Source: a virus. Taken from it: a stretch of DNA of 64,000 bases. Positions 27,371-46,000 of the stretch are shown here, piece after piece. The stretch spans positions 64,001 through 128,000 of the IMG/VR virus record IMGVR_UViG_3300036770_005682; one strand, given 5' to 3'. The translations under genes and the position numbers were made by a program. The notes beneath the pieces were generated by a model. That model did no database searches and was not told the DNA's origin. It was given only the letters and a program-made list of their open reading frames with translations. Position 1 is the stretch's first letter; each line of letters begins with the position of its first letter.

Positions 27371-27645
27371 GTCGGCACGAGTGCCATCTGAGTCCCCGTG
27401 CGGCTGACCTCGGCAGCCCCGCCGCCAGCATCTCAAAAAGATTTGACGGTGGCGGAAGAGCGGGTTCGGGTCAGGGTTTTGTGCCAAACCTAGACGCTCA
27501 GAACGGCTCAGGCTGAAACGGGGTCACCGATACCGCAGAAGAGGACGAACTCCCGTGAGAGGGCGTGTGAGGGGGCTATCCGAGGCGTTTAGGGGCATGG
27601 CAAAGCCGACCCACCCAACTGGCAGGTCGGCTCAACCGATAACTA

Positions 27646-27696
27646 CTAGACGAAGAACAGCGCAGTCAAGGCGATGACTACAACGATGGCGGTCAT
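27646..27696 (-). CDS. 16-aa hydrophobic micropeptide
   Basis: MTAIVVVIALTALFFV; ATGA overlap with the upstream gene. Confidence 0.45.
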   Translation of the reverse strand: MTAIVVVIALTALFFV

Positions 27697-27965
27697 GCTT
27701 GGGGAATACCCAAAGCGGCGAGCGTTGGGTGCGTTGAGTGTGTTTCTCCCTGTGCGTCTACCCACACAACAACATCACGACGAGGTGGTTCTTGCCCGCA
27801 TGGGTAAAAGGCTGCCTTGTGCCAACCCTTAGAGCCACAGTTGTCGCAGTAGCGTTCCCAGTCTTGCGGGTCGTCCCACCACGCATGAGTTGCGTAGTTC
27901 GCATCTGCTTCTTCTTGTGTCCCAGCGAAAGGGACTGGTTCGTTTATGAGTTGGATTACCTTCAT
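27693..27965 (-). CDS. Cassette hypothetical protein (Zn-ribbon)
   Basis: ATG 7 nt after -10 (leaderless); CDNCG. Confidence 0.65.
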   Translation of the reverse strand: MKVIQLINEPVPFAGTQEEADANYATHAWWDDPQDWERYCDNCGSKGWHKAAFYPCGQEPPRRDVVVWVDAQGETHSTHPTLAALGIPQA

Positions 27966-27972
27966 GTTGTGA

Positions 27973-28001
27973 AGTGTACCTAGCACATCGCAGAAAGTCA
28001 A
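27973..28001 (-). promoter_or_regulatory. Cassette promoter
   Basis: TTGACT-N17-TACACT. Confidence 0.75.
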
Positions 28002-28353
28002 GCGATGTCGGAAGAAACTTTCGAGACCTTCCTGGACGCCTGGCTGATGAACCCGATAGTCCCGTATCCCCAAGATGGGTATACGGGGCTGATGGCACGG
28101 GAAGGAAAACTTCCGGAGTTGACTTTTCACGGGCGGCTTGTTAGGTTATGCGTTTTGGTGTTTTGAGGTTTTTCACCACTTTTAGTGGTTTTTGAGCAAA
28201 GTTCGCCACGGAAAGTGGCGATTCCGAGAAAAACAACAAAACAACAACGAAGTTCTCGCCCGCCGAACGTGCGCTGAGCCGACATCAACTGGGTCGTCTG
28301 CGGGGCTGATGACCCAGTCACATTTACGACGGTGGCGGAAGACGGGCAACAAG

Positions 28354-28385
28354 AAAGCCCGCCCCCTTTCGGAGACGGGCTCTTG
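28354..28385 (-). terminator. Intrinsic terminator
   Basis: AAAGCCCG...CGGGCTCTT hairpin. Confidence 0.65.
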
Positions 28386-28439
28386 GTCAAACTGCCAGCA
28401 GAAGAACAACTGCCAGCGTAATCACTAACGCTGTCACTC

Positions 28440-28637
28440 TTAGTTTGTGTCCCCCTCTTCGGGGGAAACGATGTAATCAACATCGCCCCAAACTATTTCG
28501 TGCTCTCGCACTGCTTTTACTTTTCCCAATTCGTTGGTGATGAGGTCAAGGTATGCCTCCACCTTCGCTTCTGCTTCACTTTCTGACTTTGCGTCAAAAG
28601 TGTGAACCATCAGCGTGATGTTCGCTATGTATTTCAC
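28440..28637 (-). CDS. Cassette hypothetical protein
   Basis: GTG 6 nt after -10 (leaderless). Confidence 0.6.
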   Translation of the reverse strand: MKYIANITLMVHTFDAKSESEAEAKVEAYLDLITNELGKVKAVREHEIVWGDVDYIVSPEEGDTN

Positions 28638-28643
28638 AGGTGG

Positions 28644-28688
28644 AATGTACACCCTGTACAACACAACGTCAATGTGTTCTGCGTCACA
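28644..28688 (-). promoter_or_regulatory. Cassette promoter with CRP-like box
   Basis: TGTGA-N6-ACACA abutting TTGACG-N17-TACATT. Confidence 0.78.
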
Positions 28689-29097
28689 CCTACGTCCAGC
28701 CGATGACCTGTCGTTGCTGTGAGATGTCAGCCGCCGCAGCGATGACCAGCATCTCGTGGGCTGAGCCCCAGGTGGGCAAAAGCCCCGATGGGGTAATACC
28801 CCAGCACGGGGCTGCCAGGCGCAACCGGCCGGAAGGCCTCGATGGCCGGCCCTCCCCGAGTTATTCGAATAAGTTTTGGTCTTTGTCGAGCAAAAACGAC
28901 CACTTTTTGTGGTTTTTGGATAAATCCGACCACGGAAAGTGGTTTTTCCTAAAACTAAAACGGAAAAGTCGAGCTCAGCTCCTCGAGCTCACGTAGCTTC
29001 GCCAGCTATGCGGGGTTGTGGGGCGGGGCTCACAACCCCGACGCATCTACTTTGACGGTGGCGGAAGACGGCTAGCGCACCTGAGCCGAGACAGCAA

Positions 29098-29135
29098 CAA
29101 GCCCGCCGTGCGGGGGGAAGGGGCACGGCGGGCTT
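29098..29135 (-). terminator. Intrinsic terminator
   Basis: AAGCCCGCCGTGC...GCACGGCGGGCTT hairpin. Confidence 0.7.
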
Positions 29136-29155
29136 GTGCGATTGGTGAGAATGGA

Positions 29156-29518
29156 CTACTTCCAGCAGGCAGCGGAATAGACGACTTCGCTCAGGTTGTC
29201 GCAATAGACATCAAGCACTTCGTGCTCAACGACTAGCGTACCTTTCGCTTCGCCACGGTTCACGAGTCGGACACGGCGCACTTCGTACAGGTCTAGGTAG
29301 TTGAGTACCACCTCAACCGCACGACTCTCTCCGCACAGCATTAGCAAGCCAATGGTCACGCCATCGCTAGCGTTCACCTTTGCCCACTTTCCACCGCACA
29401 CAGCGAGAAAGGTCATCTTGCCCATTTGGGCTATGACCTCTTGCGGGTCGCAGTCACGACCTGAACGGTCAAGGTTGCGCAAGGCAATCAGAGACAGGTC
29501 GGTTTTCGTTGCTTTCAT
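29156..29518 (-). CDS. Cassette hypothetical phage protein
   Basis: GAAAGGGGGTG RBS; LDLYEVRR...DVYCDNLSE. Confidence 0.7.
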   Translation of the reverse strand: MKATKTDLSLIALRNLDRSGRDCDPQEVIAQMGKMTFLAVCGGKWAKVNASDGVTIGLLMLCGESRAVEVVLNYLDLYEVRRVRLVNRGEAKGTLVVEHEVLDVYCDNLSEVVYSAACWK

Positions 29519-29541
29519 TTCTTCACCCCCTTTCACCTTGC

Positions 29542-29586
29542 AGGGTACAAGTCGCAAGTGGGTAAGTCAATAGGACAAGTGTCACA
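29542..29586 (-). promoter_or_regulatory. Cassette promoter with CRP-like box
   Basis: TGTGA-N6-TCCTA abutting TTGACT-N17-TACCCT. Confidence 0.72.
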
Positions 29587-29597
29587 CTCGCCAGCCA

Positions 29598-29638
29598 GCC
29601 CGCCCGCACGCCCGCCCGCACGCCCGCCCGCACGCCCG
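29598..29638. repeat. 12-bp tandem repeat GCCCGCCCGCAC x3
   Basis: Seen directly in the linker. Confidence 0.8.
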
Positions 29639-29783
29639 TACGCACGCGCGCGTAAGAGTCCCGGACGGGATTTATTCCCGACGGGGCTCCCGCACGGGAT
29701 TGACGGTGGTGGAAGAGTTCCGATGCGGGCACAAACAAAATGCCCGCCCCCTTGCGGAGACGGGCAGTTCGTTGGAGTTTCAG

Positions 29784-30140
29784 TTAGCGGTCTGGATTCG
29801 GCGTTGCCTTCACCGTAAAAGTTCCGCTTGCATCGTGGTGGGCGAGGTGGCAAGTGAGCACTTTCGTTTCAGGGTCAAGCGAGTAACGCAATGACCATTC
29901 CGAACGGACAGTGATACTTTCCAACAACTTCATCGGAGTATCGGCGTGGAAAATGCCGTCTATCGTGCGTGCCCACAAAGGGAATCCTTCAATGCGCCAC
30001 CAAGTGTCGCCTTCGTGAAGTTCCTTGTTGTGTTCAAGCATGACTTCGGCAGTCATGGCAAACAAGTCTGTCGCCATGTCCCACTCCCACTCTTCGGAAG
30101 TGTTGCTTACCTCTTCCCACTCCAAGTCGGAGTCAAGCAT
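29784..30140 (-). CDS. Cassette hypothetical protein
   Basis: GAAAGGGGGG RBS; C-terminal HHDASGTF; terminator at 29737-29770. Confidence 0.7.
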   Translation of the reverse strand: MLDSDLEWEEVSNTSEEWEWDMATDLFAMTAEVMLEHNKELHEGDTWWRIEGFPLWARTIDGIFHADTPMKLLESITVRSEWSLRYSLDPETKVLTCHLAHHDASGTFTVKATPNPDR

Positions 30141-30170
30141 GACTCCCCCCTTTCATGAGTTGAGAATGAC

Positions 30171-30225
30171 AGACTACCGACTTAGTAGCGATTAGTCAAG
30201 TAGGCATCGTGTGACATTAGGCACT
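30171..30225 (-). promoter_or_regulatory. Cassette promoter with CRP-like box
   Basis: AGTGC-N6-TCACA 10 bp upstream of TTGACT-N17-TAGTCT. Confidence 0.72.
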
Positions 30226-30465
30226 TCCGAGTAAGACGATAAGAATAAGGACTACAAAGATAGGCACTAATGACATGACAGCAACTTACCGCACCTGAGC
30301 CGAAAAAACAACAACCCGATGTCGGCGATGTCGGGATGGGACGGGAGCCCCGGAGGCCCGCTGCCGGCCCACGGGGCTAACGGGTATCCGACGGTGGCGG
30401 AAGAAGGGCTCGCACTTCTCGTCGGGCTGACTTGGTCTGCTCAGTTTCAGTCGTGCTGTTTCGTG

Positions 30466-30542
30466 CGAACGCCTGTTCGGGTCGTGAGACGCTCTGCCCC
30501 TGTGTGTCTCATGCGAACACCTGTTCGGCGAACATCTGTTCT
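30466..30542. promoter_or_regulatory. Three LexA/SOS boxes (CGAAC-N4-GTTCG)
   Basis: 30466-30479, 30514-30527 and 30529-30542 (last ends GTTCT); matches the Gram-positive/actinobacterial LexA consensus. Confidence 0.75.
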
Positions 30543-30585
30543 GTGACAAACGACACTTGCAATGTGTCCTTGACACCTGTACCCT
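30542..30585 (+). promoter_or_regulatory. Cassette promoter with CRP-like box
   Basis: TGTGA-N6-ACACT overlapping TTGCAA-N17-TACCCT. Confidence 0.7.
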
Positions 30586-30590
30586 ACTAG

Positions 30591-30692
30591 GTGGGACAAC
30601 CTGCCCGCCTAGCCTGTGGTGAAGCGACCTGCGTCACGGGGGGAACTAGAAAAGGTAGGGGGTGCGCCGTAGGGAAGGCGTACCTGTCCCAC
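30591..30692 (+). ncRNA. Candidate structured 5' leader RNA
   Basis: GTGGGACA/TGTCCCAC closing stem; inner CCTGCC/GGTAGG and GGTGCGCC/GGCGTACC stems; starts at the predicted TSS. Confidence 0.45.
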
Positions 30693-30719
30693 TCAACATA
30701 AGAACCGAGAAGGGGAACC

Positions 30720-30896
30720 ATGACACGCAAAGATTATGTCTTGCTTGCCAGTCATCTCCGCTACGCTCGTACGGGCGTTTCCGTCTCTCTGCTTGCAGGG
30801 TTTGACGAAGCCGTAGAAGCAATAGCGGACGCACTCGCAAGTGAGAACCACCGTTTTGACCGCGATAAGTTTTTGGAAGCGGTGAACCCGAACTAA
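30720..30896 (+). CDS. Small phage early protein (MTRKDY...RFDRDKF type)
   Basis: 58 aa, below the ORF-track cutoff; GAAGGGGA RBS; terminator follows. Confidence 0.75.
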   Translation: MTRKDYVLLASHLRYARTGVSVSLLAGFDEAVEAIADALASENHRFDRDKFLEAVNPN

Positions 30897-30920
30897 ACAT
30901 TCCCAACACCACAGGCACAG

Positions 30921-30957
30921 AAAGCCCCATGCCGTTTGGCGTGGGGCTTTTTGTTTG
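30921..30957 (+). terminator. Intrinsic terminator
   Basis: AAAGCCCCATGCC-gttt-GGCGTGGGGCTTTTTGTTT. Confidence 0.8.
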
Positions 30958-31133
30958 CCCTCAACTCCCAGTCGGAACACCTCGCCAGATGGCTTTGATG
31001 GCATCTGGTAGCCCCGGAAGCCGTGCGGCAGCAACGGGGCTCCCACAGGAGTGCGACGGTGGTGGAAGTCCCCTGGTCTCCGCCTCTCCTCGCCTACCTC
31101 GCCCGCTGTCATCATTCGTCTGTCTCAAACTGA

Positions 31134-31178
31134 TGTGACAAACGTCATGTTGTGATGTGTACCTGACAGGTGTAGTGT
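31134..31178 (+). promoter_or_regulatory. Cassette promoter with CRP-like box
   Basis: TGTGA-N6-TCATG abutting TTGTGA-N17-TAGTGT; ATG 7 nt later. Confidence 0.68.
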
Positions 31179-31185
31179 GCTATGT

Positions 31186-31773
31186 ATGGAAACAGCAACG
31201 AAGGAAGCCATAGCACTACGGGTGCTTGCCGAATACTGGCAGACAGATGTAGCCCCAATGGTGAACCCACGAGCCTGTGTGCTTGCTGGACGCTTGGCGA
31301 CTGTTGTGCTTGGTCGCATCGGCATTTCCACCGCCGTCTACCACACCGACACCGTTGCTATGAATGACCTGTGGTACAACCTGTTCATCGTCAAGGGGCT
31401 TGGTCAGCAGTTCCTTCCCCCTGAGGCATGGTGTGTTGGTGCTGTCACCGCAGATGTCAAGGGAACGCACAGCACGATGGTTGGCGGTTTCAGCGGTCAC
31501 CTTGTTGTGACAACCCCGCACCACTTTGTAGACCTGAGCGCAAGCCAGTTTGACCGTCCCTCACATGACATCGTGACTGGCTCGCCACTCATCGTCCCCC
31601 GTGAGAACATCACAGACACGCCACATGGCAAGATGGTTCCGATACAGCGTGGTGTTTACATCACGAAGCCTGCCGAGAACCCTGCGTCATACCAATGGAC
31701 ACCCGACTGGCAGACCAACTACAAGACCTTTGCGAAGCCACTCATCACCCGCCTGCGGGAGATGTTCTCGTGA
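31186..31773 (+). CDS. Cassette hypothetical protein, possibly transglutaminase/papain-like
   Basis: ACVLA...GHLVV...VDLSASQFDRP gives a C-H-D order. Confidence 0.65.
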   Translation: METATKEAIALRVLAEYWQTDVAPMVNPRACVLAGRLATVVLGRIGISTAVYHTDTVAMNDLWYNLFIVKGLGQQFLPPEAWCVGAVTADVKGTHSTMVGGFSGHLVVTTPHHFVDLSASQFDRPSHDIVTGSPLIVPRENITDTPHGKMVPIQRGVYITKPAENPASYQWTPDWQTNYKTFAKPLITRLREMFS

Positions 31774-32027
31774 CCGTACGAGACTGGTACGAGTTTGTGG
31801 AAACGGACTTGGAGAACTACGAGCGTGAGAAGTTTCGTGAGATGCTGTCCGACATCGGCTTTGATGACCTGTATGTGGAACGCACCGATGACCACGGCAT
31901 TTGCTACTTGTGCGAGCGTGATGGAGTGTTGTACCTTGTAATGAACAGAGGACAACTGCGTGAGACAAATGCCTACTACCTTTGCTCTACCTGTACTAAC
32001 GAGATGAAGCGAAAGACCGAAGAATGA
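31770..32027 (+). CDS. Zn-finger hypothetical protein
   Basis: GTGA overlap; CYLC...CSTC. Confidence 0.6.
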   Translation: MTVRDWYEFVETDLENYEREKFREMLSDIGFDDLYVERTDDHGICYLCERDGVLYLVMNRGQLRETNAYYLCSTCTNEMKRKTEE

Positions 32028-32182
32028 CCGGAATGTTGTATTCGCAGCGCAACGCACACTCATGCCCGTGGGGGTGCTGTGGCGATTTCGTCAAGGGTCG
32101 TGGAACGAAGCACCGCTGTAAGAAGTGGCATCGCATCTTGCGTACCCGTGAGAAGCGCAACTGGAAGAAAGAGGAATGGTGA
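32024..32182 (+). CDS. Small basic Cys-containing protein
   Basis: 52 aa MTGMLYSQRNAHSCPWGCC...; ATGA overlap. Confidence 0.5.
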   Translation: MTGMLYSQRNAHSCPWGCCGDFVKGRGTKHRCKKWHRILRTREKRNWKKEEW

Positions 32183-32649
32183 CTGCACCCGAATACGAAA
32201 GTTGGTGGGACAGCGATGCTGGCAAGCCCGCCAGTCTCTGCGATGCCTGCGGGCAGAAGCAACTACTAACCCAACAGACATCGCCCGCCCTTCCTGATGG
32301 GGGCTGGATTATGGAGTTTGAGCATTTCGGCTATTACGGCGGGTTCTCTGACGACATTGAGGTTGCGTTTGGCAAGCGAGACAGTAACTCATGGTCGCTT
32401 TGCCATGACTGCGTTGTGAAGTTCTTTGAGACATTCCCTGCGCTAGCGGAGAAGTTCGGTCGGGGGCACCACCCCAACTTCATTCACACAGACGACCTGC
32501 CGTACAGTGAGCGAGGCACATCTAGCCCGTCATGCTGTCGCTTTGCGTGGACATGGAATGTGACCGTTGAGAACGGAGAGAAGGTCTACGAGACTTTCTA
32601 CGGAGATGGCACAGGTGGCTGGGTTGCCCAGTCTAAGGAGCGAGTCTGA
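32176..32649 (+). CDS. Zn-binding hypothetical protein
   Basis: CDACG...GYYGGFSD...LCHDC. Confidence 0.65.
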   Translation: MVTAPEYESWWDSDAGKPASLCDACGQKQLLTQQTSPALPDGGWIMEFEHFGYYGGFSDDIEVAFGKRDSNSWSLCHDCVVKFFETFPALAEKFGRGHHPNFIHTDDLPYSERGTSSPSCCRFAWTWNVTVENGEKVYETFYGDGTGGWVAQSKERV

Positions 32650-32695
32650 TGGTTGTCAGCATCGTCGCCCTGATAGCCATCCTTCTGCTGTTGTC

Positions 32696-32908
32696 CTAGA
32701 ACAGCATTTCCCCGCTACTGCCCTCTTTCTTTTTTCTGCTTGTCTCTGTCTCTACGCAGATGGAGTGGGCGTACTTGTGCTGGTTCTTCACGCCCCTGAT
32801 GCCTGTGTTGTTGTCACGCACCCACGCCAACACGAGTTTCATAGTTCCACTTTGGTTCGGAACTACCTCTTGGTCACAGAACTCACATCGGAAGCGAACG
32901 TACGACAT
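32696..32908 (-). CDS. Zn-ribbon hypothetical protein
   Basis: CEFC...HSIC. Confidence 0.45.
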   Translation of the reverse strand: MSYVRFRCEFCDQEVVPNQSGTMKLVLAWVRDNNTGIRGVKNQHKYAHSICVETETSRKKKEGSSGEMLF

Positions 32909-33047
32909 TATGGAAATAATACCGGCCGGGGCTCCCGAGCGCAACAGCATCTTCTTTGACGGTGGTGGAAGAAGCCCCTGAACGGGGACAGCAGAAAGCC
33001 CACACCCGTTTCCGAGTGTGGGCTGACTGTTGGAAGCGAGTTGTGCG

Positions 33048-33503
33048 CTAGTTGTTCTTGGCGATGAGTTGGTAAAGCGTGGAGAGCAGAGCGTCTGCGA
33101 GAGAGCCGTGCGCTTCACCTTCGTCTGTCATCGGTTCATCGGGGTCGTGCTGAAAGACGACTGCCGAACCCATTGTTCCGTCACGCTCAACGCAAGCACA
33201 GAGACGCACACGCTGACGGAGTGGGTGCTGGCTTGGTGCGCCTTCCACTTCGCCGTTGGAGTTGAGTGGGGAAGCCCACCCCGTCGTCAGGACACCAATG
33301 CCCTGCTCGTACTCCTGAATGTTCTCAATGCTCGGCAGGCTCGCAAGCCCTTCGTAGATGTCTCCTGCTGTCGCAAGGACACGGAAGCCGTCGGCACAGT
33401 ACGCAAACAGGACTGCCTGTTCCATACTGAAACCTTCGTCTCCTTCCTTGGAGAGTGAGTGCTGGGCGAGTAACGCCATACGCACAGGTGTTGGTGTTGT
33501 CAC
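33048..33503 (-). CDS. Cassette hypothetical protein
   Basis: GAAAGGGG RBS; terminator at 32995-33025; GWASP...PSQHPLRQRVRL. Confidence 0.72.
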   Translation of the reverse strand: MTTPTPVRMALLAQHSLSKEGDEGFSMEQAVLFAYCADGFRVLATAGDIYEGLASLPSIENIQEYEQGIGVLTTGWASPLNSNGEVEGAPSQHPLRQRVRLCACVERDGTMGSAVVFQHDPDEPMTDEGEAHGSLADALLSTLYQLIAKNN

Positions 33504-33533
33504 TTGTTCCCCTTTCGTAGTGGTGACAGTTAC

Positions 33534-33578
33534 ACACTACACAGAACACAAACAAATGTCAATGTGTCGTTAGGCACA
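33534..33578 (-). promoter_or_regulatory. Cassette promoter with CRP-like box
   Basis: TGTGC-N6-ACACA abutting TTGACA-N17-TAGTGT. Confidence 0.75.
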
Positions 33579-33769
33579 GCCGGCAAGTCCAAACTTTGAC
33601 CGAGTCCAAACTTTGAGCAGGTCAAGACCGACAAACCGGAACGCCGGTGACATCTGGGGCTGAGAGCCCCGCGCCCCGCCGCAGCCCAACGGGGCTCCAC
33701 ACCACTTTGACGGTGGCGGAAGAAGCCCTCGTGTGCGCCTGCGTGTGTGCGCCTGCGTGTGTGCGTGAA

Positions 33770-33824
33770 TGTGCCGAATGTCACTACGCACCCCTATTGA
33801 CTTGCTGTTCCTGTCAAGTACACT
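33770..33824 (+). promoter_or_regulatory. Cassette promoter with CRP-like box
   Basis: TGTGC-N6-TCACT 11 bp upstream of TTGACT-N16-TACACT. Confidence 0.7.
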
Positions 33825-33856
33825 CAACAACACCTACTAACCGAAGGGACGGAACA

Positions 33857-34441
33857 ATGGGAATGGACGTAATCGGGAAGAACCCGAAGAACAAGAAGGG
33901 CGAATACTTCCGCAACAATGTGTGGTGGTGGCGACCCCTGTGGCAATACTGCGAGTATGTCGCACCCGAACTGACCGACAAGGTGGAATACGCTGGCTCT
34001 AATGACGGAGACGGGCTGGACGGAGATGACGCTCGCAAGTTGGGCAACGCTCTGCGGAAAGAACTCCGCAAGGGCATGACCGCCGTGTACATCTCTGCTC
34101 GTCAGGAATACTTGGACAGCCTGCCTGTTCGCCCGTGCGCCCATTGTGAGGCAACGGGAACTCGCAAGTGGCTGGTCAATGCCACTACAAACGAGCGCAA
34201 GCCGGCTGTGACCTACAACTTCTTGGAAGCGTTCACCAACGAGCAGACGAACAACGGGCAACTGCCGACTTACGAGTACCACACGCCCGAAGAAGGCTGG
34301 GTGGAAGAGACAACCGAATGTAATGGTTGTGAAGGCACGGGTGGACAGCCTGCGTGGGAACGCTCGTACCCCCTCACCGAAGAGAATGTTCGTGAGTTCG
34401 CCACCTTCTTGGTGAACTGCGGTGGATTTGAGATTTGGTGA
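33857..34441 (+). CDS. Phage early hypothetical protein with DnaJ-like CxxCxGxG motifs
   Basis: GEYFRNNVWWWRPLW...CAHCEATG...CNGCEGTG...GGFEIW. Confidence 0.78.
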   Translation: MGMDVIGKNPKNKKGEYFRNNVWWWRPLWQYCEYVAPELTDKVEYAGSNDGDGLDGDDARKLGNALRKELRKGMTAVYISARQEYLDSLPVRPCAHCEATGTRKWLVNATTNERKPAVTYNFLEAFTNEQTNNGQLPTYEYHTPEEGWVEETTECNGCEGTGGQPAWERSYPLTEENVREFATFLVNCGGFEIW

Positions 34442-34963: not shown

Positions 34964-35010
34964 GTTCTCCAACAGGGGTAATCCGTCCCCCCTTTCACCT
35001 CTGTTGGACT

Positions 35011-39231: not shown

Positions 39232-39345
39232 ACCGCACAGGCGGACTGTTCCCCCACCCACAGGGACAGCCCGCCCAAGCGTGGCGGGCGGGTGGCACTT
39301 CCCCCTTTCAGTCACCCGCCCGCCTGAACACGAAAGAGAACGCAG

Positions 39346-39507
39346 ATGAAGTGGAACACCACAGCAGTCATGGGTCACATTGTTGAGACTGTGACCACCG
39401 AAGCAGACGACATTGACACCGCAACGGAGATGGCATACGACCTGCTGGAAGGCAAGGGCTATGACCTGTCAGCCTTTGACGAAGTGACAACGGAGAGCGA
39501 GCGATGA
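39346..39507 (+). CDS. Small acidic hypothetical protein
   Basis: 53 aa, GAAAGAG RBS, ATGA overlap with the next gene. Confidence 0.55.
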   Translation: MKWNTTAVMGHIVETVTTEADDIDTATEMAYDLLEGKGYDLSAFDEVTTESER

Positions 39508-39764
39508 GCAAGTACCGTGTTCAGGTCATGGTCGGCGTAGATGTCTCAGCCGACACAGATGGCGAGGCGATGGTGAACGCCGTTGCGAAGGTGCGTGGCA
39601 TTATCGGGGAGAACCCGACAGAGCCAATGCCGAAGGAAGCGTGGGTGACGGGCATCGCACTTGCCGACCCCGCACATTGGCATCACACGAGCGTTGAGGG
39701 GTACATGGTATTCCGACAGCCCGACCGAGCCGAGGACAACTCTTTGACGGTGGCGGAAGACTAG
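39504..39764 (+). CDS. Hypothetical protein; 3' end contains a polar motif copy
   Basis: ORF track; motif at 39743-39760. Confidence 0.6.
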   Translation: MSKYRVQVMVGVDVSADTDGEAMVNAVAKVRGIIGENPTEPMPKEAWVTGIALADPAHWHHTSVEGYMVFRQPDRAEDNSLTVAED

Positions 39765-39988
39765 TCGCTGAACACTTTTTTGTCGTAGATGCGTAGGGCA
39801 TTTACGGCAAGGCTGGTCACGGCGCACTTCCAGTAAGGTGCGTTCCAGTCTGTGATGTCAGACGAACGCAAGAACCACAGCACAACCCACAGCACTCCGC
39901 CGTAAATAGAACCCGCAAGTCCAGCCCCTGCTAGCGTAACTAAGAACGCTGGTTTGGGGCTGTTTGTTATCTCAGGGTGTTTAGGCAT
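39761..39988 (-). CDS. Small membrane protein
   Basis: Start moved to MPKHPEIT; hydrophobic segment. Confidence 0.5.
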   Translation of the reverse strand: MPKHPEITNSPKPAFLVTLAGAGLAGSIYGGVLWVVLWFLRSSDITDWNAPYWKCAVTSLAVNALRIYDKKVFSD

Positions 39989-40355
39989 TGACGGTCTTGC
40001 CCAAGCGGTTGATGATTTGGTGAACGCGCTGGCGCGACAACCCGTACTCATCACCGATGCTTTGGAGCGACCTGCCATTTTGACGGGCAACGAGCATGGC
40101 GTTGTCCCTGTCGGGATTACCTGATGGGCCGGGCTTACATGGCCCCCATGCCCACCCTGCGAACTTCTCCAACTGTGCGATGCGCTCAGGAGACAGAGTG
40201 CCTGCCCGATACTTGATACGCACATAGGTCACCCATGACCCAAGTGAAACTGTCTCTCCGTCCACCGAACACTTGTACGAGGTCGGTACAAGGGCTGTTC
40301 CGTGTTCTGAAACGTAGGTGGATAGTGCTTGAATGTTTTTGTCCCATCGGCTCAT
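39981..40355 (-). CDS. Helicase-associated (HA) domain fused to a sigma-region-4-like HTH
   Basis: WDKNIQALSTY..EHGTALVP...LGSWV...LSPERIAQLE; SLQSIGDEYGLSRQRVHQI. Confidence 0.75.
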   Translation of the reverse strand: MSRWDKNIQALSTYVSEHGTALVPTSYKCSVDGETVSLGSWVTYVRIKYRAGTLSPERIAQLEKFAGWAWGPCKPGPSGNPDRDNAMLVARQNGRSLQSIGDEYGLSRQRVHQIINRLGKTVNA

Positions 40356-40554
40356 AGTCTTGACATTACTCGACCGGCCACCGGCTGCGGCGGAACCGGC
40401 TTGACAGCCCCGCGATGCGGCCGCCAGCTTCCGGGGCCCCTGATGACGGTGGTGGAAGACAGGGCCGGCCCTCGAGAAAGTTTTCGCCACGTGTTGCATT
40501 TGTCAGTTGTACTGGGTAGTGTGACGGCACCACTTCACAAGGAAGGAGAAGGAA

Positions 40555-40764
40555 ATGGAAACCTATGACAAAGAAGCAGTAGAGAAACTGCAACCAGAGA
40601 AAGCACGGGGGGAAGTGGGAGTGCTCTCAATGGAAGGACTAGATGTCGGCGTCAAAATCGCAGACGTTCGTGTCCGCTTCGGTCATATTGATTACCTAGT
40701 CAAGCCACTCAACGGCAAGGGCGAGGTATGGGTGGAGCGCCACCGTGTCAAAGTGATGGCGTGA
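40555..40764 (+). CDS. Hypothetical protein
   Basis: Promoter TTGCAT-N17-TAGTGT at 40494-40522; strong RBS. Confidence 0.68.
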   Translation: METYDKEAVEKLQPEKARGEVGVLSMEGLDVGVKIADVRVRFGHIDYLVKPLNGKGEVWVERHRVKVMA

Positions 40765-40803
40765 CAAACGTCACTTGACAAACTGGCTTGTGGGGTGTAG
40801 CGT
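40760..40803 (+). promoter_or_regulatory. Promoter with near-consensus CRP-like box
   Basis: CGTGA-caaacg-TCACT overlapping TTGACA-N17-TAGCGT. Confidence 0.78.
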
Positions 40804-40844
40804 GTACCCCACAAGTCACTACTTATCTATTAGCAAGGGGAACA

Positions 40845-40994
40845 ATGTCAGACGAACTGACCTACTGGAACTGCCACAAGTGCAAGGACACTTGGGAGCC
40901 GTACTACGGCATGCTGAGCATCAAAGACGATGTCACGCCCGCCATCATCATCTACACCTGCATCAACTGTATGCCAGACGACGAGGAGGAATGA
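40845..40994 (+). CDS. Small Zn-ribbon protein
   Basis: CHKC...CINC; AAGGGGA RBS. Confidence 0.55.
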   Translation: MSDELTYWNCHKCKDTWEPYYGMLSIKDDVTPAIIIYTCINCMPDDEEE

Positions 40995-41155
40995 TGCGTA
41001 CCCTCATCATCACACTCACCACACCCGACGAGATTGACCCATCAGAGGTCGCTGAAATCATGGTTGACGACTTTTACTACTCAAACCGTGCTACCGAGGA
41101 CTTCGGCCCGCACATGGAGGAGATTCTCATCTCATGGAAGGAAGAAGAGAAATGA
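40991..41155 (+). CDS. Small acidic hypothetical protein
   Basis: GAGGAGG RBS; ATGA overlaps. Confidence 0.55.
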   Translation: MMRTLIITLTTPDEIDPSEVAEIMVDDFYYSNRATEDFGPHMEEILISWKEEEK

Positions 41156-41472
41156 GAGCCATAGCAAGCGCTCCGATGCGCATCATGCCCATTACTGAAG
41201 CGATAGAAATCCGCTTCAGTTCCACGTCATACAAAGGCGACGTCACAAAATGGCAACTGCTCGCCAGCGTGAACACAAACGGCACCATCTCCTACACGCT
41301 TCACCGTGTTCCCCGTGCCTCGTACGGTTACTCATTGACCAGCCTTGTGGGTACCTCTCGTGTGATTCTTCCGATGAAGGCCTACGATGGGTGGCACGGC
41401 GATGTTCTTGAGTGGGTTCGTGACCACACTCTGTCAGGCAAGACCGTCTACGAGATTGAGAAGGTGCTCTAA
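41152..41472 (+). CDS. Hypothetical protein
   Basis: Coupled ORF. Confidence 0.6.
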   Translation: MRAIASAPMRIMPITEAIEIRFSSTSYKGDVTKWQLLASVNTNGTISYTLHRVPRASYGYSLTSLVGTSRVILPMKAYDGWHGDVLEWVRDHTLSGKTVYEIEKVL

Positions 41473-41930
41473 TGGCTACGCGTTCTGTTGTCGCTCGCTT
41501 GACTGAAAGCGGTATTGAGGGTCGCTACGTTCATTGGGATGGTTACCCCATCCACATGATGACAGCGCTCTACGAGTTGATTCGCCGTGACGGCTACGAG
41601 ACCGTCACACGTGTTCTTCTTGACGAACACGACGGGTGGTCATCCATCAACCCGTTCCAAGAAGAAGACGACGACACGATTGGACACGTGGAGACGCTTG
41701 AGTACTGGGGCAAGTACTACACGGACACACCGAACGAACCATTCTTCACGACATTGAGCGAGGCGTACGACGCTTGGGCGGAATACGTGTACATCATCGT
41801 CGCAGAGGGTGAACAGCCTGTGGAGATTCGCTGTTACCGCCAAGACACAGACGAACCGATTCAGGTGATGCAGGTGCTGTGCGACCATGAATACGACTCG
41901 TACTGTGCGAACTGCGGGGTGGACTCATGA
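41472..41930 (+). CDS. Phage early hypothetical protein (YxHWDGYP family)
   Basis: MATRS...YVHWDGYP...EYVY. Confidence 0.75.
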   Translation: MATRSVVARLTESGIEGRYVHWDGYPIHMMTALYELIRRDGYETVTRVLLDEHDGWSSINPFQEEDDDTIGHVETLEYWGKYYTDTPNEPFFTTLSEAYDAWAEYVYIIVAEGEQPVEIRCYRQDTDEPIQVMQVLCDHEYDSYCANCGVDS

Positions 41931-42070
41931 AAGATTTGATTGAGGAAATCATCAACATTCTCAACTTGCCTGGTGAGCAATACACAGACGGCGAATGCCT
42001 GGACCTCATCGCAGAGTTGTTGACGGAAAATGGATTTGAAGTTTTTGAGGAGCAGAATGAAAGCGCATGA
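41927..42070 (+). CDS. Small acidic hypothetical protein
   Basis: 47 aa; TDGECLDLI; ATGA overlap. Confidence 0.5.
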   Translation: MKDLIEEIINILNLPGEQYTDGECLDLIAELLTENGFEVFEEQNESA

Positions 42071-42308
42071 ACTCATCAAGCAATTGATGGAACTTCCGCC
42101 AGACGAGCCCGTCTGTGCACTCGTGTGGACAAAAGCAGAGTTTGATTTCAACGACGAGTATGACGAGTTGGAATTGACCCCCGAGGGTTGGCAAAAGGTC
42201 TGCGACGACTTCTACAGTTCCCTGAACGTGCTGTGCCACACGATTGACGAAAGTCTCAACAACGCAGTATTGGACTACGCAATAGAAAAGAGTTTTGATG
42301 CCGAGTGA
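42057..42308 (+). CDS. Acidic hypothetical protein
   Basis: MKAHELIKQLMELPPDE; GAGGAG RBS. Confidence 0.6.
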   Translation: MKAHELIKQLMELPPDEPVCALVWTKAEFDFNDEYDELELTPEGWQKVCDDFYSSLNVLCHTIDESLNNAVLDYAIEKSFDAE

Positions 42309-42705
42309 ACAAGTACTCGTAAACGACGACGGGGAAATCCAATGCATATGCATGAACGAGCCGTCGTGGGATGGGTTCAGCGCATGCCACCGCAATGGCC
42401 AAGTGGATGACAATCTGCTTTCAAAGCACAACGTCGACAGCGTCTACTACCTGTGTCAGCGCTGTGGCCGAATCATTAACGAAACAACCCTCGAGGTTGT
42501 GGCAGTGCTGCAGTCAGATGAAGAAAATTTTGATGACCTGTTCACTGCGGCCGTCGGGATGAAGGAACGTGCACACCGCATAGCCCAGCAGGCGCTGGAG
42601 GAGAAACCATGGAACGTCGAGGAAATGATGGGTGACCTCTCGAGTATCGAGCGACTTCTGGTGTGCCTCCAGAAGGTGAAACTCCAGGAGCTCCAAACGT
42701 TCTGA
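42295..42705 (+). CDS. Zn-binding hypothetical protein
   Basis: CICMN...CQRCGRII. Confidence 0.6.
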   Translation: MMPSEQVLVNDDGEIQCICMNEPSWDGFSACHRNGQVDDNLLSKHNVDSVYYLCQRCGRIINETTLEVVAVLQSDEENFDDLFTAAVGMKERAHRIAQQALEEKPWNVEEMMGDLSSIERLLVCLQKVKLQELQTF

Positions 42706-43015
42706 CAACTCTTTTACGGTGGTGGAAGAGGTTGTAATTACATAACGAAGTAGCTATTATGACTAAACAAATGCTGACGCCTGATATGACGCTCCGCTCG
42801 ACACTGTGCGAGCTCAAGAAATTTGAACACCCTCCAGTGAGCCGCTTTAAATTAGGCAGTCCTTGTCGTTTCATCCGAACAATTGACATATTTGTCCACA
42901 TCGTTATCCCCGAACTTGTGGAAAAACCTTTTCCACATCTCGCGCGATATCTGCGCAACACATCCCCTCGCTGGGGCCGCAGCTGGCGGCACTGGTAACT
43001 ACAGAAAGGAAAACC

Positions 43016-43324
43016 ATGTTTGACGACATGCCCAACCCATACGAAGACCTCTATATCTGGGATTCCCTGGAGAAACGCGGCTTCCCTATCGGCTCGGCCG
43101 TGCAATGCATTCATCTCAACGCACCAGGCGTACGTGAGGTAATTGTCAACGGAGACCCCGAAGCAATCCAGACTCTCATGAATTCCGAGGGCCGTGAGCT
43201 CAGCGAAACCATGGTCGAGGTCCTGAAGACGTTCGTCGGAATCATGTTCAAGGTTTACGCTGACCAGCCAGACGAAAAGCGGATGGAAATCCTCGAGTAC
43301 ATCAAAGGCCTGGCTGGCCAATGA
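43016..43324 (+). CDS. Hypothetical protein
   Basis: GAAAGGA RBS. Confidence 0.62.
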   Translation: MFDDMPNPYEDLYIWDSLEKRGFPIGSAVQCIHLNAPGVREVIVNGDPEAIQTLMNSEGRELSETMVEVLKTFVGIMFKVYADQPDEKRMEILEYIKGLAGQ

Positions 43325-43396
43325 TGGCCACATTAATATTCGCTGCGGCGGTAGTAGCGCTATTCACGTGTAACTGATGTGGTACCATCCCGGACC

Positions 43397-43573
43397 ATGT
43401 CGAAAAGATTTATCTGGAAATGCCCCAAGTGCTCGAACAAGCTCGAGGTGCGTGTGTCTTTGTCGACCGCCCCAGTCTGTGCGAACAAGAAAAGTCACAC
43501 CTCGAAGCCCCAGGTCATGGAGCTCATCGAGGGCGGCGAAGGGGCCATCGTTAAAAAACCAGCCAATAAATAA
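43397..43573 (+). CDS. Small Zn-ribbon protein
   Basis: WKCPKC...PVCANKKSH. Confidence 0.5.
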   Translation: MSKRFIWKCPKCSNKLEVRVSLSTAPVCANKKSHTSKPQVMELIEGGEGAIVKKPANK

Positions 43574-43618
43574 TCACTGACAACTCTTTTACGGTGGCGG
43601 AAGACCTAGTATTACTGC

Positions 43619-44104
43619 ATGAACACAACCGCATACAACATCGAAACCTGGAATGATGGGGCCGCCGCTGCGGCAGAGAAGATATTCGACTTCCCAGTCC
43701 CCCACCCCGGTTTATCCATCATCGAGCTCCGGTCGAGCTTCACAAAGATGGAAGATTATTTCGCCCGTCATGAAAACAGTGGCATGTTCTCTATTGCCTG
43801 GTCAGACGTAGGCAACGTAGCTGCGCGCTATGCCGCTAATAGCGGCCATCGCTTTACGCAGGATGAGCTAGTTGAGACATTAGTTCGCAAGCAACGTGAC
43901 TACGGTCATAATAATATTCTCCGTTTTGGCACGTATGGCGTCATCGTCCGCTGCCACGACAAAATCGCACGCCTCGAGCACCTCCTCGAGAACGGCAAGA
44001 CACCCCAGAACGAATCAATCAAAGACAACTTGATGGACGTCGCCGGCTACGCGGCAATTGGCATCATGCTCAACCATGGATGGTTCGAAAAAGAGCTGAA
44101 GTGA
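43619..44104 (+). CDS. Nucleotide modification associated domain 1 (DUF1599-like) protein
   Basis: KQRDYG...RCHDKIARL...ESIKDNLMDVAGYA. Confidence 0.78.
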   Translation: MNTTAYNIETWNDGAAAAAEKIFDFPVPHPGLSIIELRSSFTKMEDYFARHENSGMFSIAWSDVGNVAARYAANSGHRFTQDELVETLVRKQRDYGHNNILRFGTYGVIVRCHDKIARLEHLLENGKTPQNESIKDNLMDVAGYAAIGIMLNHGWFEKELK

Positions 44105-44200
44105 GGGGAGTCTCAGCGCAGCCAACCTACCCACAAACCGCGCTGAGACTCTAACCCTCGTGAGGGGAAGGGGACCCTCGAGGTCCAGGTTACACCATTA

Positions 44201-44214
44201 CGAACACATGTTCG
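44201..44214. promoter_or_regulatory. LexA/SOS box
   Basis: CGAAC-ACAT-GTTCG. Confidence 0.65.
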
Positions 44215-44634
44215 GGGATGCCGGGGCTCCCACCCACGTTGCGCTCATTAACATTTGACGGTGGCGGATGACCCCAAAAAAATTTCCCGAATCTGCTTGC
44301 AGCCGCCACACCCTCCTGCTACAGTTCCTCCCACAACCGAAGGCCGGCCTAAAACCTTCACTTTCAACGTTGCCCAAATCCAGCAACGTTATTTGTGTTG
44401 CCCCAACTCATGTTTTTTACCCCTGCCGCCTAGTGGGGGGGACTACAGGGGGGGGGTAAGTCACCTTACTGAACAATAATTGCGTTCTAGTACATCAGCT
44501 AGCGCTGATTGTTCTAGAAGCGTGAAATAACTTGAAGTTCTATAGTTCTTGAGTAAGGTAAGTCATAGTTAGTACTACAACTCCCCTACCAGTATGTTGT
44601 AGTACCAATGGTCGCGTAGAAGGAGTAAGTAATT

Positions 44635-44991
44635 TTGGCGCGGAAAAAATTGTCCGATAAAAAAGTTCCGGTAGAAAACCTCCCATACTTTTCCTCCGTA
44701 ACAGAAGATTCGGTATTTCAGGTTTTCACTATTTGGGTGGATACTTTTTGGTCCGGACGCGGACGACGTCCTGAGTTGACGCATAGCCGGCGCGACGCCA
44801 TCACTCGAGGAATAGCTGGACATGGCCTCCAGAAGGCTATTAAGGCCGTACGGGGCTGTTCACAGTCCGAGTTCCACATGGGCGGGAACGACCTGGGGAA
44901 GCAGTACACGTCGCTCGAGCTCATCTTCCGCGATGACTGGCGCATCAAGAAATTCGCTAGCATGTACAAACCGACGGTGGAGGAAGAATGA
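44635..44991 (+). CDS. Replication initiator C-terminal-like domain protein
   Basis: LTHSRRDAI...AVRGCSQSEFHMGGND...SLELIFRD; directly upstream of a helicase loader-like gene. Confidence 0.55.
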   Translation: MARKKLSDKKVPVENLPYFSSVTEDSVFQVFTIWVDTFWSGRGRRPELTHSRRDAITRGIAGHGLQKAIKAVRGCSQSEFHMGGNDLGKQYTSLELIFRDDWRIKKFASMYKPTVEEE

Positions 44992-45458
44992 CCAAGGATG
45001 AAGTAGTCAAAGCAGTAGAACTTCTCTACTCGCACTGGAATGACCGCCTGCCCAGCTCAGATGCCCCCAAGAAGGCCGCTCTGCGTGCCTGGGCCGAGTT
45101 TCTTATTGACCTTGACTACGAAGCCGTCGTCCGAGCCATATCGCACGCAGCCGTCTACGACACGTACATGCCGCGTCCAGGTCAGATTCGGAAAGCCGTA
45201 CTCCAGGAGTGCAGCCAATTACCAATCCCCCCGACTCCCGTGGAGGCTTGGGGTCAAGTTCGCTCTCTATGCGAATCAGTAGCGACTGGGACTTACAGCG
45301 AAGATAGCTTTCATCCCTGCGTGCTCGCCACAGTACGACAAATGGGAGGCATCGCCGGCGTCTCAGTGAACACAAACGGGGACCGAACATACTTCTTGGA
45401 AGCGTATCAGGAGCAAGTACGAGCCTGGGAAAAGCTCCACTATAAACTGATTCCGTGA
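44988..45458 (+). CDS. Replicative helicase loader/inhibitor (G39P-like)
   Basis: MTKDEV...AWAEFLIDLDYE...MPRPGQIR...PTPVEAW. Confidence 0.7.
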   Translation: MTKDEVVKAVELLYSHWNDRLPSSDAPKKAALRAWAEFLIDLDYEAVVRAISHAAVYDTYMPRPGQIRKAVLQECSQLPIPPTPVEAWGQVRSLCESVATGTYSEDSFHPCVLATVRQMGGIAGVSVNTNGDRTYFLEAYQEQVRAWEKLHYKLIP

Positions 45459-45472
45459 ATTAACATCTTGCC

Positions 45473-45652
45473 ATGCGCAAGAGGATGGGCCGACCGGCCA
45501 AACACGCTGCCGGCGACACGACGATTACTTTACGCGTCCCTGCCGACATCAAGAACCGGATTGTCGACATGGCAGACGCTTACGACATGACGATTACCGA
45601 GTACCTCTTGACACTTGTGGAGAGAGATGTCTCGGACACCCCAGCGCGCTGA
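45473..45652 (+). CDS. Ribbon-helix-helix DNA-binding protein
   Basis: 59 aa MRKRMGRPAK...TITLRVPADIKNRI...MTITEYLLTLVERD. Confidence 0.65.
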   Translation: MRKRMGRPAKHAAGDTTITLRVPADIKNRIVDMADAYDMTITEYLLTLVERDVSDTPAR

Positions 45653-45965
45653 GTTACCAGACGGTAAGTACAACCTCGTCGTCCAGATACCGGGCTGGCT
45701 GAAGAACGAGATACTCGACGCCTGCGGGGACGCGAGAATCAACCAGTGGGTTTCGACGGTGTTGTATGAGGCTGTGCGCGAAGCACGCGGCCTGCCGCCT
45801 GCGCCGCCACCAGCCGCGCCGAAGCCGACGACTGCCGACCAGATACGGGCCTACATGGTTGGTGAAACACTGCTCCAACCGTGTGGGAAGACCGACTGCG
45901 AACCAGTCTGGCAGGAAATACAAAACATGCAGTTTTGTGAAAAATGCGGTGTGCGGGGTATCTAG
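45627..45965 (+). CDS. RHH-like protein with C-terminal Zn finger
   Basis: LVVQIPGWLKNEI...INQWVSTVL; CEKCG. Confidence 0.55.
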   Translation: MSRTPQRAELPDGKYNLVVQIPGWLKNEILDACGDARINQWVSTVLYEAVREARGLPPAPPPAAPKPTTADQIRAYMVGETLLQPCGKTDCEPVWQEIQNMQFCEKCGVRGI

Positions 45966-46000
45966 CGCCCTTTATTCACCACGGTGGCGGAAGTGTGTTA

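Follow-up and report, generated by a model that had tools for sequence, protein, structure and literature searches.

What does a short motif do that recurs between the genes of a viral genome with all its copies on a single strand, and what reads it? The question is raised by IMG/VR record IMGVR_UViG_3300036770_005682, of which positions 64,001 to 128,000 form the window studied here, i.e., a stretch of 64,000 nt to which all coordinates refer if not stated otherwise. A sequence-only reading of this window had described an array of autonomous gene cassettes punctuated by about 17 co-oriented motif copies. We find that the motif defines an uncultured phage clade. It is quite probably read by a conserved phage protein, and we give about even weight to the view that it is the asymmetric recognition site of such a DNA-binding protein, acting like the operator/stoperator system of Cluster A phages.

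A strand-specific motif at gene boundaries

The motif GACGGTGGYGGAAGA is an asymmetric 15-mer. Allowing for at most 2 mismatches, the window contains 18 matches between 27445 and 46773, all on the + strand (11 exact, 5 with one mismatch and 2 with two), compared to a mean of 0.31 and a maximum of 3 matches in 100 dinucleotide shuffles of the window. For the whole record (137,811 bp), the 13-mer core with at most 1 mismatch is found 17 times on the forward and 0 times on the reverse strand, and all 17 hits are confined to one 19-kb block at 91.4-110 kb of the genome. As a control, the core read backwards gives 0 and 1 hits in the whole genome. The claim of about 17 co-oriented + strand copies is thus borne out by 17 copies plus a doubtful one, with coordinates that were right within 0-3 nt, and the motif is not equally frequent on both strands. 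The copies are listed below (ORF, open reading frame; L064, a related genome; HA+sigma4, the candidate reader introduced in the next section).

27445-27459, + strand, motif copy 1, exact
28328-28342, + strand, motif copy 2, exact; minus-strand terminator-like hairpin at 28429-28412
29054-29068, + strand, motif copy 3, exact; minus-strand terminator at 29114-29102
29702-29716, + strand, motif copy 4, exact; strong minus-strand terminator at 29766-29741
30390-30404, + strand, motif copy 5, exact; variant joints begin at 30407 and 30412 (3 and 8 nt past the copy)
31055-31069, + strand, motif copy 6, 1 mismatch
32958-32972, + strand, motif copy 7, exact; recombinant joint relative to L064
33709-33723, + strand, motif copy 8, exact
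35150-35164, + strand, motif copy 9, exact; reciprocal joint relative to L064
36022-36036, + strand, motif copy 10, exact
39746-39760, + strand, motif copy 11, exact; overlaps the end of + strand ORF 39504-39764 and abuts a minus-strand ORF stop at 39761
40445-40459, + strand, motif copy 12, exact; 90 nt past the HA+sigma4 start codon
42715-42729, + strand, motif copy 13, 1 mismatch; 10 nt past the stop of + strand ORF 42298-42705; a variant joint begins at 42732
43590-43604, + strand, motif copy 14, 1 mismatch; the ATG of 43619-44104 follows after 14 nt
44257-44271, + strand, motif copy 15, 1 mismatch
44973-44987, + strand, motif copy 16, GGAGG variant; within the terminal part of 44635-44991, immediately followed by the ATG at 44988
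45980-45994, + strand, motif copy 17, 2 mismatches; 15 nt past the stop of + strand ORF 45627-45965; the stop of the minus-strand WhiB gene lies 7 nt further right
46759-46773, + strand, doubtful motif copy 18, 2 mismatches; inside minus-strand gene 46323-46973

Copy 18 may be a chance match. Among the other copies, 15/17 are intergenic and those at 39746 and 44973 overlap the last codons of + strand ORFs (home-made gene calls), which agrees with the earlier statement that nearly all copies lie between genes. The gene that follows a copy is on the minus strand in 8/17 and on the plus strand in 9/17 cases. With regard to copy 16, its GGAGG can act as ribosome-binding site for the ATG at 44988.

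In a pooled profile of 222 copies, the information content beyond motif positions -2 to +15 is at most 0.25 bits, and no universal -10 element is visible. Where the motif overlaps an ORF start it reads ATG-ACG-GTG-GTG-GAA-GA with invariant third codon positions, i.e., it is conserved at the DNA level. An Rfam search over 24-50 kb (E ≤ 1) returned no family at the motif and a single sub-threshold small-RNA hit at 26734-26782. Six forms of the motif string gave no phage paper in the searchable literature, where all occurrences were unrelated (primers etc.).

We also assessed how far the motif is spread. An exact-match scan of viral contigs yielded at least 119 stretches with the motif, many of them from contigs of 75-160 kb with several co-oriented copies each. 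Three copies or more are present in 31 sources (the window plus 30 loci, with near-duplicates among them), and in 31/31 all copies share a strand. Five related genomes, two of which are complete, show 9/0, 0/8, 9/0, 0/9 and 0/15 copies per strand, in each case within a single block of 12-20 kb. The 15-mer is unchanged while its flanks vary widely in sequence and base composition. Comparing the array with 50,697 phage records by megablast gave no match, and tblastn of the candidate reader protein against the same records gave none at E ≤ 1e-3, i.e., there is no cultured relative among them. In a scan of bacterial genomes, the contigs among the matches listed each have one copy and no array, which says nothing on host or prophage.

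A candidate reader of the motif

The protein that we lean towards as the reader is encoded within the array itself.

39981-40355, - strand, candidate motif reader of 124 aa with an HA domain, a Pro/Gly linker and a C-terminal sigma-70 region-4-type helix-turn-helix (HTH)

Pfam assigns the two domains to HA (PF03457, 3.9e-16) and Sigma70_r4 (PF04545, 4.9e-6), and we refer to the protein as HA+sigma4. Its AlphaFold (AF2) model (predicted local distance difference test, pLDDT, of 85.6) consists of two domains and a low-confidence Pro/Gly linker, and the C-terminal domain superposes locally on region 4 of sigmaA bound to -35 DNA (1ku7, 1.7 Å over 48 residues; 1rio, 1.8 Å). Across an alignment of 21 sequences with only 35-79% overall identity, the recognition helix keeps R108, Q109, R110, H112, Q113 and I114 without exception. 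A deep profile search of 1.84 billion representatives mostly retrieved large multi-repeat HA proteins and not the two-domain architecture, and a profile search of PDB sequences gave weak HTH matches only. A complex prediction for WhiB (residues 28-116) and the sigma4-like domain (78-124) scored 0.00, which counts neither for nor against binding.

The reader gene is kept in the arrays of 25 fetched loci, and for 24/24 distinct homologues gene and motif are on opposite strands. By an alignment-based search we found at least 319 viral contigs that encode a relative of the reader, the best 80 of which were fetched without regard to the motif. In these best 80 of 319 loci, 247 core copies are on the strand opposite to the reader gene and 0 on its own strand. 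Even for the bare 7-mer ACGGTGG the ratio is 606 opposite versus 91 on the gene strand, given a chance level of ~78 per strand. The ACGGTGG half of the site is constant, while its 3' half is clade-specific (GGAAGA, G[GT]ATGA, G[GT]ATAGCC, GGAAAGC), such that the clade variants of the motif end in …GGATGA, …GTATAGCC and …GGAAAGC. The protein columns that are most associated with the site type belong to the HA domain. The link between reader gene and motif is strong but not absolute.

Position of the sites relative to genes and transcription

To describe where the sites lie, we used 38 non-redundant arrays. Plus-strand genes end at most 25 nt before a site or overlap it in 60/194 cases, and minus-strand genes end 0-25 nt after a site in 26/98 cases. 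A minus-strand intrinsic terminator is found directly right of 31/330 sites (random positions: mean 5.0, maximum 12), a plus-strand terminator directly left of only 7/330. Thirty of the 329 sites open an ORF, and at 29/329 an ATG follows after 0-18 nt. At 23/329 sites (7%), a TAnnnT follows at a distance that would make TTGACG a -35; 0/17 window copies have the canonical form at this spacing. In one relative (L164), the core lies within the spacer of four promoters, i.e., in operator position. Taken together, sites that are mostly at gene ends in short intergenic spaces, a few sites in promoters, and terminators that minus-strand units have and plus-strand units lack fit a one-way, protein-made stop of rightward transcription. 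The pattern agrees with what is published on L5-type operators and stoperators, and it argues against the motif being a promoter in general.

The sequence-only reading regarded motif polarity as independent of transcription. Full independence is not supported, as the right-hand gene is co-oriented with the motif at 211/309 sites and 750/1136 conserved flanking genes across the clade share its orientation.

Recombination at the motif

Relative to three genomes with ~70-80% DNA identity (L064, L072, L043), the cassettes are reordered. On its left, copy 32958 is flanked by sequence that matches the left of L064 copy 9272, and on its right by sequence that matches the right of L064 copy 12374. For copy 35150 the reciprocal is observed, i.e., its left flank matches the left of L064 copy 12374 and its right flank the right of L064 copy 9272. 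The identity switch at both copies takes place within ~25 nt of the motif. L064 has no DNA match to ~30718-32738.

Joints are also seen on a shorter time scale. Freshwater runs of studies other than the probable source contain a mostly collinear relative with ~93-95% identity, and minor contigs show structural joints. Out of 17 joints listed (runs X5, X7, X12), five have a side at most 10 nt from a motif edge, with ~1 expected by our own estimate: 35164->32985, 42988->29050, 42732->43865, 30407->30538 and 30412->30529, the last two of which may be a single event. In run X5, one contig joins 42988 to 29050 (4 nt before copy 3) and one joins 35164 (the end of copy 9) back to 32985. In runs X5 and X7, 28441-28644 (most of gene 28440-28652) is swapped for 227 other letters, and in runs X7 and X12 the 58-aa gene 30720-30896 is deleted (30705-30888) with 12-13 other letters left.

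For the 15 closer arrays, we compared junction intervals of at most 300 nt. Rearranged (non-collinear) junctions contain the motif in 9/12 cases versus 2.4 expected (p = 0.002), collinear gaps in 27/103 versus 20.3 expected; the genome pairs of this test are non-independent. Flank concordance with shifted anchors is too noisy to rely on, with 77% discordant at the motif versus 47-67% at shifts. The raw loss of gene adjacency at the comparison level (49.8% vs 21.1%) is no longer significant after control for gap size and unique pairs.

The motif is probably a preferred crossover point. We conclude that it is a frequent crossover on short time scales, not the sole one, and that there is no sign of a dedicated recombinase. 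Since the motif is the only sequence common to unrelated cassettes and all its copies are direct repeats, homologous recombination would move whole units, and recombination would be a by-product rather than a selected function.

Proposed explanation and its alternatives

As for the function of the motif, a polar transcription block or operator is our tentative choice, held a little short of even. According to this explanation, a single HA+sigma4 monomer would read the invariant ACGGTGG half together with the clade-specific 3' half, and the bound protein would be a one-way block to rightward (+ strand) transcription. Such a block would halt plus-strand units at their ends, which are mostly without terminators of their own, and would keep antisense read-through out of convergent minus-strand units, among them the reader gene and WhiB. 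Where a site overlaps a -35/-10 pair, as in a few cases, it would be an ordinary operator. Homologous recombination between copies could delete, insert and reorder whole units with their genes intact, both within and between co-infecting relatives. The earlier proposal of a DNA-level polar signal at unit boundaries of a modular region is supported. It had been set against an ordinary operator for one phage repressor, which is close to our best reading, yet the system is not ordinary.

Several observations weigh against a stoperator-like role of HA+sigma4 and its sites. The phage looks lytic, i.e., it has no integrase or resolvase, which makes a role as immunity repressor unlikely. Matches of the HTH to sigma region 4 are non-significant (fold E 0.15-1.5, PDB profile E 0.3-0.9), and the covariation of site type and protein is confounded by phylogeny, with GGAAGA occurring in two distant clades without shared diagnostic residues. 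Among the reader-anchored loci, only 60/80 have at least 4 ACGGTGGNG sites and ~18-20/80 are without a recognizable array within 10 kb. Co-occurrence is not specific to the reader, as the arrays also keep the AAA_5 ATPase, the 510-aa protein, WhiB and other genes. In L5, a Cluster A phage, the sites switch strand with transcription, while they are on one strand here and 8/17 face a convergent gene. The genes used for all positional counts stem from a crude, home-made coding-potential caller trained on the long ORFs of the genome, and no RNA runs that hold this DNA are listed. With regard to recombination, at least 3 breakpoints between the window and L064 are off the motif (~30718, 33774-33828, 36287). 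Furthermore, when only unique pairs of neighbouring gene families with an intergenic gap of 60-400 nt are considered, adjacency loss (mean fraction) across the motif is no higher than elsewhere (0.57 vs 0.53, p = 0.37 in arrays; p = 0.50 for whole loci). Accordingly, the earlier idea of a recombination or cassette-exchange site is backed by the L064 joints, the run joints and the junction excess and opposed by the controlled adjacency test; likewise, cassette order and content do differ among relatives with joints at the motif, but not with joints there alone.

Instead of stopping transcription, the motif might start it, namely as a phage promoter or activator box that replaces the -35, such that HA+sigma4 (perhaps with WhiB) redirects the host RNA polymerase rightward. 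The parallel in T4 would be the MotA box with sigma appropriation, and the WhiB family binds region 4 of sigmaA. TTG precedes the core in 104/329 sites, which gives a -35-like TTGACG, and TAnnnT is enriched at a spacing of 17-18 nt (10 and 9 sites versus a background of 2.4; 16 and 6 of 150 copies). The co-orientation of right-hand genes (211/309), the sigma region-4-type HTH of the reader and the WhiB gene kept beside the array point the same way. We nevertheless consider a promoter box unlikely: a -10 is in register at just 23/329 sites and in canonical form at 0/17 window copies; 59/329 sites are on or at most 18 nt from a start codon, so that a transcription start ~15 nt downstream would be intragenic; many copies point straight into a convergent terminator and a minus-strand gene; and in the variable half, the promoters of plus-strand units are distinct from the motif and lie downstream of it. 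Very improbable in our view is an RNA-level element of the plus-strand mRNA that serves 3'-end processing, stability or translation coupling. It would account for sites 0-25 nt past or overlapping plus-strand stops (60/194), which are often just before the next start, and the GGAGG variant at 44973 is usable as ribosome-binding site. However, about half of the window copies lie between self-contained minus-strand units, where plus-strand transcription is not expected, which argues against such an element. No Rfam family matches, nothing is conserved outside -2 to +15 to build a structure from, and the canonical GGTGG/GGCGG core should pair poorly with the anti-Shine-Dalgarno sequence.

If recombination is instead taken as the function proper, the motif would be the core of an unrecognized site-specific recombination system whose cassettes travel as circles, similar to an integron. 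The strict direct repeats irrespective of gene orientation inside the units, the self-sufficient units with their own promoter and terminator, the joints exactly at motif edges (with the back-joint 35164->32985 also readable as a circle junction), the reciprocal exchange relative to L064 and the junction enrichment are all in line with it. We rate it as quite unlikely, given that the complete genome encodes no tyrosine or serine recombinase (transposase families were not searched for) and that the candidate reader is without a catalytic domain. Besides, 12 letters at the 35164->32985 joint resemble an L064-type flank, i.e., a co-occurring variant genome explains the joint. The gap-controlled adjacency test has no excess of breaks at the motif, several breakpoints are elsewhere, and copies are found as well between the core genes at 40-46 kb, which are conserved, syntenic and not mobile. 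A variant without a known recombinase, in which HA+sigma4 would pair copies and self-expressing units would leave as circles and re-insert at any copy, is rather improbable; if true, it would be integron-like gene capture of a new mechanistic type in hundreds of uncultured actinophage genomes.

Strand specificity is also a property of Chi, KOPS and the nicks of T5-type phages. A host-directed DNA signal, i.e., Chi-like protection, a site-specific nick, DNA entry or packaging, would thus agree with copies on one strand, and GGTGG resembles part of E. coli Chi. Yet the motif is restricted to 19 kb of 138 kb with one block per relative, is 15 nt long and the same in phages of very different base composition, and is tied to gene boundaries. 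The bacterial contigs among the matches listed have a single copy and no array, and the terminal repeat is a 127-bp assembly overlap rather than a physical end. Such a signal is therefore very improbable, and the Chi-like option of the sequence-only reading is not retained.

If the stoperator-like explanation is true, this would be a second, independently evolved system of that type, found in a clade of actinobacterial phages that is large, widespread and entirely uncultured, and protein-made one-way transcription stops would reach beyond temperate Cluster A to large lytic-looking myoviruses. It would also provide a concrete DNA target for an HA domain and a free-standing sigma region-4 fold. 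The sites mark swap points of ORFan cassettes and thus offer a tractable case of a regulatory sequence turned into a safe crossover for mosaicism. Finally, the invariant 15-mer is a simple metagenome marker for the clade and its hypervariable accessory region.

Genome and cassette anatomy

The 138-kb genome is that of a contractile-tailed phage (myovirus) with portal, protease, sheath and baseplate genes. Its portal is nearest to those of Streptomyces, Gordonia and Brevibacterium phages (~40% identity), and the WhiB-family gene 46001-46351 points to an actinobacterial host. Neither the tyrosine recombinase family PF00589 nor the serine recombinase/resolvase family PF00239 has a match in the complete 137.8-kb genome (for PF00589, all control genomes matched; transposase families were not searched for), i.e., the claim that no integrase is visible extends to the whole genome. 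Sigma-70 region 2 (PF04542) is absent as well. The 'direct terminal repeat' of the record is a 127-bp exact overlap of its ends, such that the assembly closes into a circle and the array is not placeable relative to physical ends. Units of the array and conserved genes are the following.

27460-30389, - strand, four single-gene cassettes (genes 27693-27986, 28440-28652, 29156-29536, 29784-30140)
30405-32957, + strand, two units (30720-30896; 31186-31773 with 32179-32649)
32973-33708, - strand, cassette with gene 33048-33503, promoter starting at 33562
33724-35149, + strand, cassette with promoter 33797-33824 and genes 33857-34441, 34474-34659 (DUF4314) and 34644-34898
35165-36021, - strand, cassette with gene 35247-35822 and promoter 35886-35858
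36037-39745, + strand, conserved unit with promoter 36322-36350 and 36395-36811, AAA_5 ATPase 36953-37693, 510-aa protein 37699-39231, 39346-39507 and 39504-39764
40460-45979, + strand, conserved gene series interrupted by motif copies 13-16
43619-44104, + strand, DUF1599 protein (conserved series)
44635-44991, + strand, lambda-O-like initiator fragment (conserved series)
44988-45458, + strand, helicase-loader-like protein (conserved series)
45473-45652, + strand, weak ribbon-helix-helix (RHH)-like protein (conserved series)
46001-46351, - strand, WhiB-family transcription factor at the right array edge (PF02467, 9.4e-12; phrog_472), kept in 16 related loci

Between motif copies, units comprise 1-8 small genes on either strand; the earlier description had the orientation right and a size of 1-5 genes. 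Promoters were located by a pattern scan for TTGACN-16/17-TAnnnT on a gene's own strand. In the variable left half (27.4-36 kb), small units on both strands each have such a promoter, starting at 28001, 28672, 29570, 30199, 33562 and 35886 for minus-strand units (the first four being the TTGACN-17-TAnnnT promoters of the four single-gene cassettes) and at 33797 and 36322 for plus-strand units. Candidate promoters downstream of the motif were found for the plus-strand units right of copies 30390, 31055, 33709 and 36022. Minus-strand units of this half close with intrinsic terminators just right of a motif copy, e.g., 29766-29741. That is, autonomous cassettes with their own promoter and terminator in either orientation, as claimed before, are confirmed for the variable half. 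Its cassette proteins match no Pfam family except for one DUF4314. The right half (36-46 kb) consists of genes kept in 16-27 related loci, with the motif in very short gaps between co-oriented genes.

Some cassette genes are possibly leaderless, with a -10-like hexamer ending 0-8 nt before the start (29536-29542, 31178-31186, 42759-42760, 40355-40375). The G+C content of 26000-46000 is 0.51-0.59, compared to 0.43-0.52 for most of the right side and 0.46-0.54 for much of the left. CGGGGCT is a second co-oriented element. Within 28290-44250, it frequently provides the 3' arm of AGCCCCG-N16-20-CGGGGCT hairpins (e.g., 30347-30379, 31011-31041, 33665-33696, 35980-36012). CGGGGC ends 5-40 nt upstream of 11/17 motif copies, and 13/16 genome-wide + strand copies of CGGGGCT fall within the array. 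The element is present in the window's own group (L064 type) and was not seen in distant relatives. Short G/C-rich tandem repeats (GCCCGCCCGCAC-like and GTGTGCGCCTGCG-like) occur at ~29590-29650 and ~33725-33775, beside copies 29702 and 33709, and the L064 counterpart carries similar ones.

Right of the array follow a proteasome-subunit-like protein (46323-46973, PF00227) and a calcineurin-like phosphoesterase (47021-48193), both kept in relatives. At 3503-14848, the window holds 12 tRNA genes, all on the minus strand. Outside the window, positions 50408-60796 of the genome (L120:4409-14797) encode a 3462-aa polyvalent protein with Zeta_toxin, DnaJ, NUDIX and HTH domains in the head-gene region. 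It is not recognizable as an RNA polymerase, and the idea of promoters for a virion RNA polymerase was dropped.

Some relatives contain further repeats. DnaA-box-like inverted repeats (TTATCCACA ... TGTGGATAA) lie upstream of motif copies with a good -10 in L075 (~3860-3935, reverse strand), L065 and L164, and TTATCCACAGG has 6 copies in L164. Other strand-specific repeats, i.e., CATACCTACTA (9 copies in L145), TACTAGAAAGG (8 in L151) and GTACCTACTAC (6 in L193), may represent a conserved -10/leader element. The TTGACAGC and TTGACACACC repeats (L156, L155), considered as motif variants, proved to be ordinary promoters.

Comparison with known systems

Chi sites are short, host-specific, found throughout a genome and act on the end-processing nuclease of the host. 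They can be set apart by the properties given above, i.e., a motif of 15 nt in only 19 kb of 138 kb that is identical across very different base compositions. With integrons, the locus shares a cassette array that is split by co-oriented repeats and whose content varies between relatives. It differs in that the complete genome has no IntI (PF00589), in that the motif lacks the anatomy of attC, i.e., an imperfect inverted repeat whose two ends carry conserved core sites (the upstream hairpin is found only in the window's own group), and in that the cassettes have their own promoters and either orientation, while integron cassettes are mostly promoterless and use a common promoter. The attC analogy listed by the sequence-only reading hence fails. 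Start-associated sequences (SAS) of Cluster K mycobacteriophages lie, as a rule, a few bases upstream of start codons. They are similar in being conserved, asymmetric 13-15 bp actinophage motifs near gene starts, and copy 44973 supplies a ribosome-binding site. On the other hand, only 59/329 sites overlap or closely precede a start codon here.

T4-type promoter-early stem-loops (PeSLs) are described in PMC2839356 as conserved regulatory sequences that flank ORFan cassettes in a plastic region; their recombination inserts, deletes and replaces cassettes with no dedicated recombinase known in that account, and mini-circles were demonstrated by inverse PCR. Here too, joints are found at the motif between cassettes of a plastic region. 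By the same account, a PeSL is a strong sigma-70 promoter plus a terminator stem-loop and follows gene direction, whereas our motif is in promoter register at 23/329 sites and the promoters and terminators of the cassettes are separate from it. It is also one invariant 15-mer clade-wide rather than a loose composite.

With regard to Cluster A (L5, TipsytheTRex), both systems have many asymmetric sites of 13-15 bp without dyad symmetry (>20 there versus 8-17 here), a few of them in promoters and most in short intergenic spaces, with strict polarity and an actinobacterial host. The L5 stoperator consensus contains GGTGG and, on the other strand, TTGACA. The small reader with two DNA-binding domains and a linker that we propose would suit a site without dyad symmetry. 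According to PMC9283540 and PMC6550527, an L5-type repressor binds as a monomer and uses two domains; its targets are >20 asymmetric 13-mers, located in promoters or in short intergenic spaces, and it represses in an orientation-dependent manner. Both initiation and elongation are blocked by the bound repressor of Cluster A. The differences are that our candidate combines HA and Sigma70_r4 instead of an HTH and a stoperator domain (no search with a gp71-type sequence, i.e., the L5 repressor type, was made), that the sites here are in one 12-20 kb block instead of genome-wide, that the phage is a 138-kb lytic-looking myovirus without integrase, and that binding and repression are demonstrated for L5 and inferred here. 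Overall, the system appears nearest to Cluster A stoperators in its regulation and to T4-type PeSLs in its evolution, and belongs to neither.

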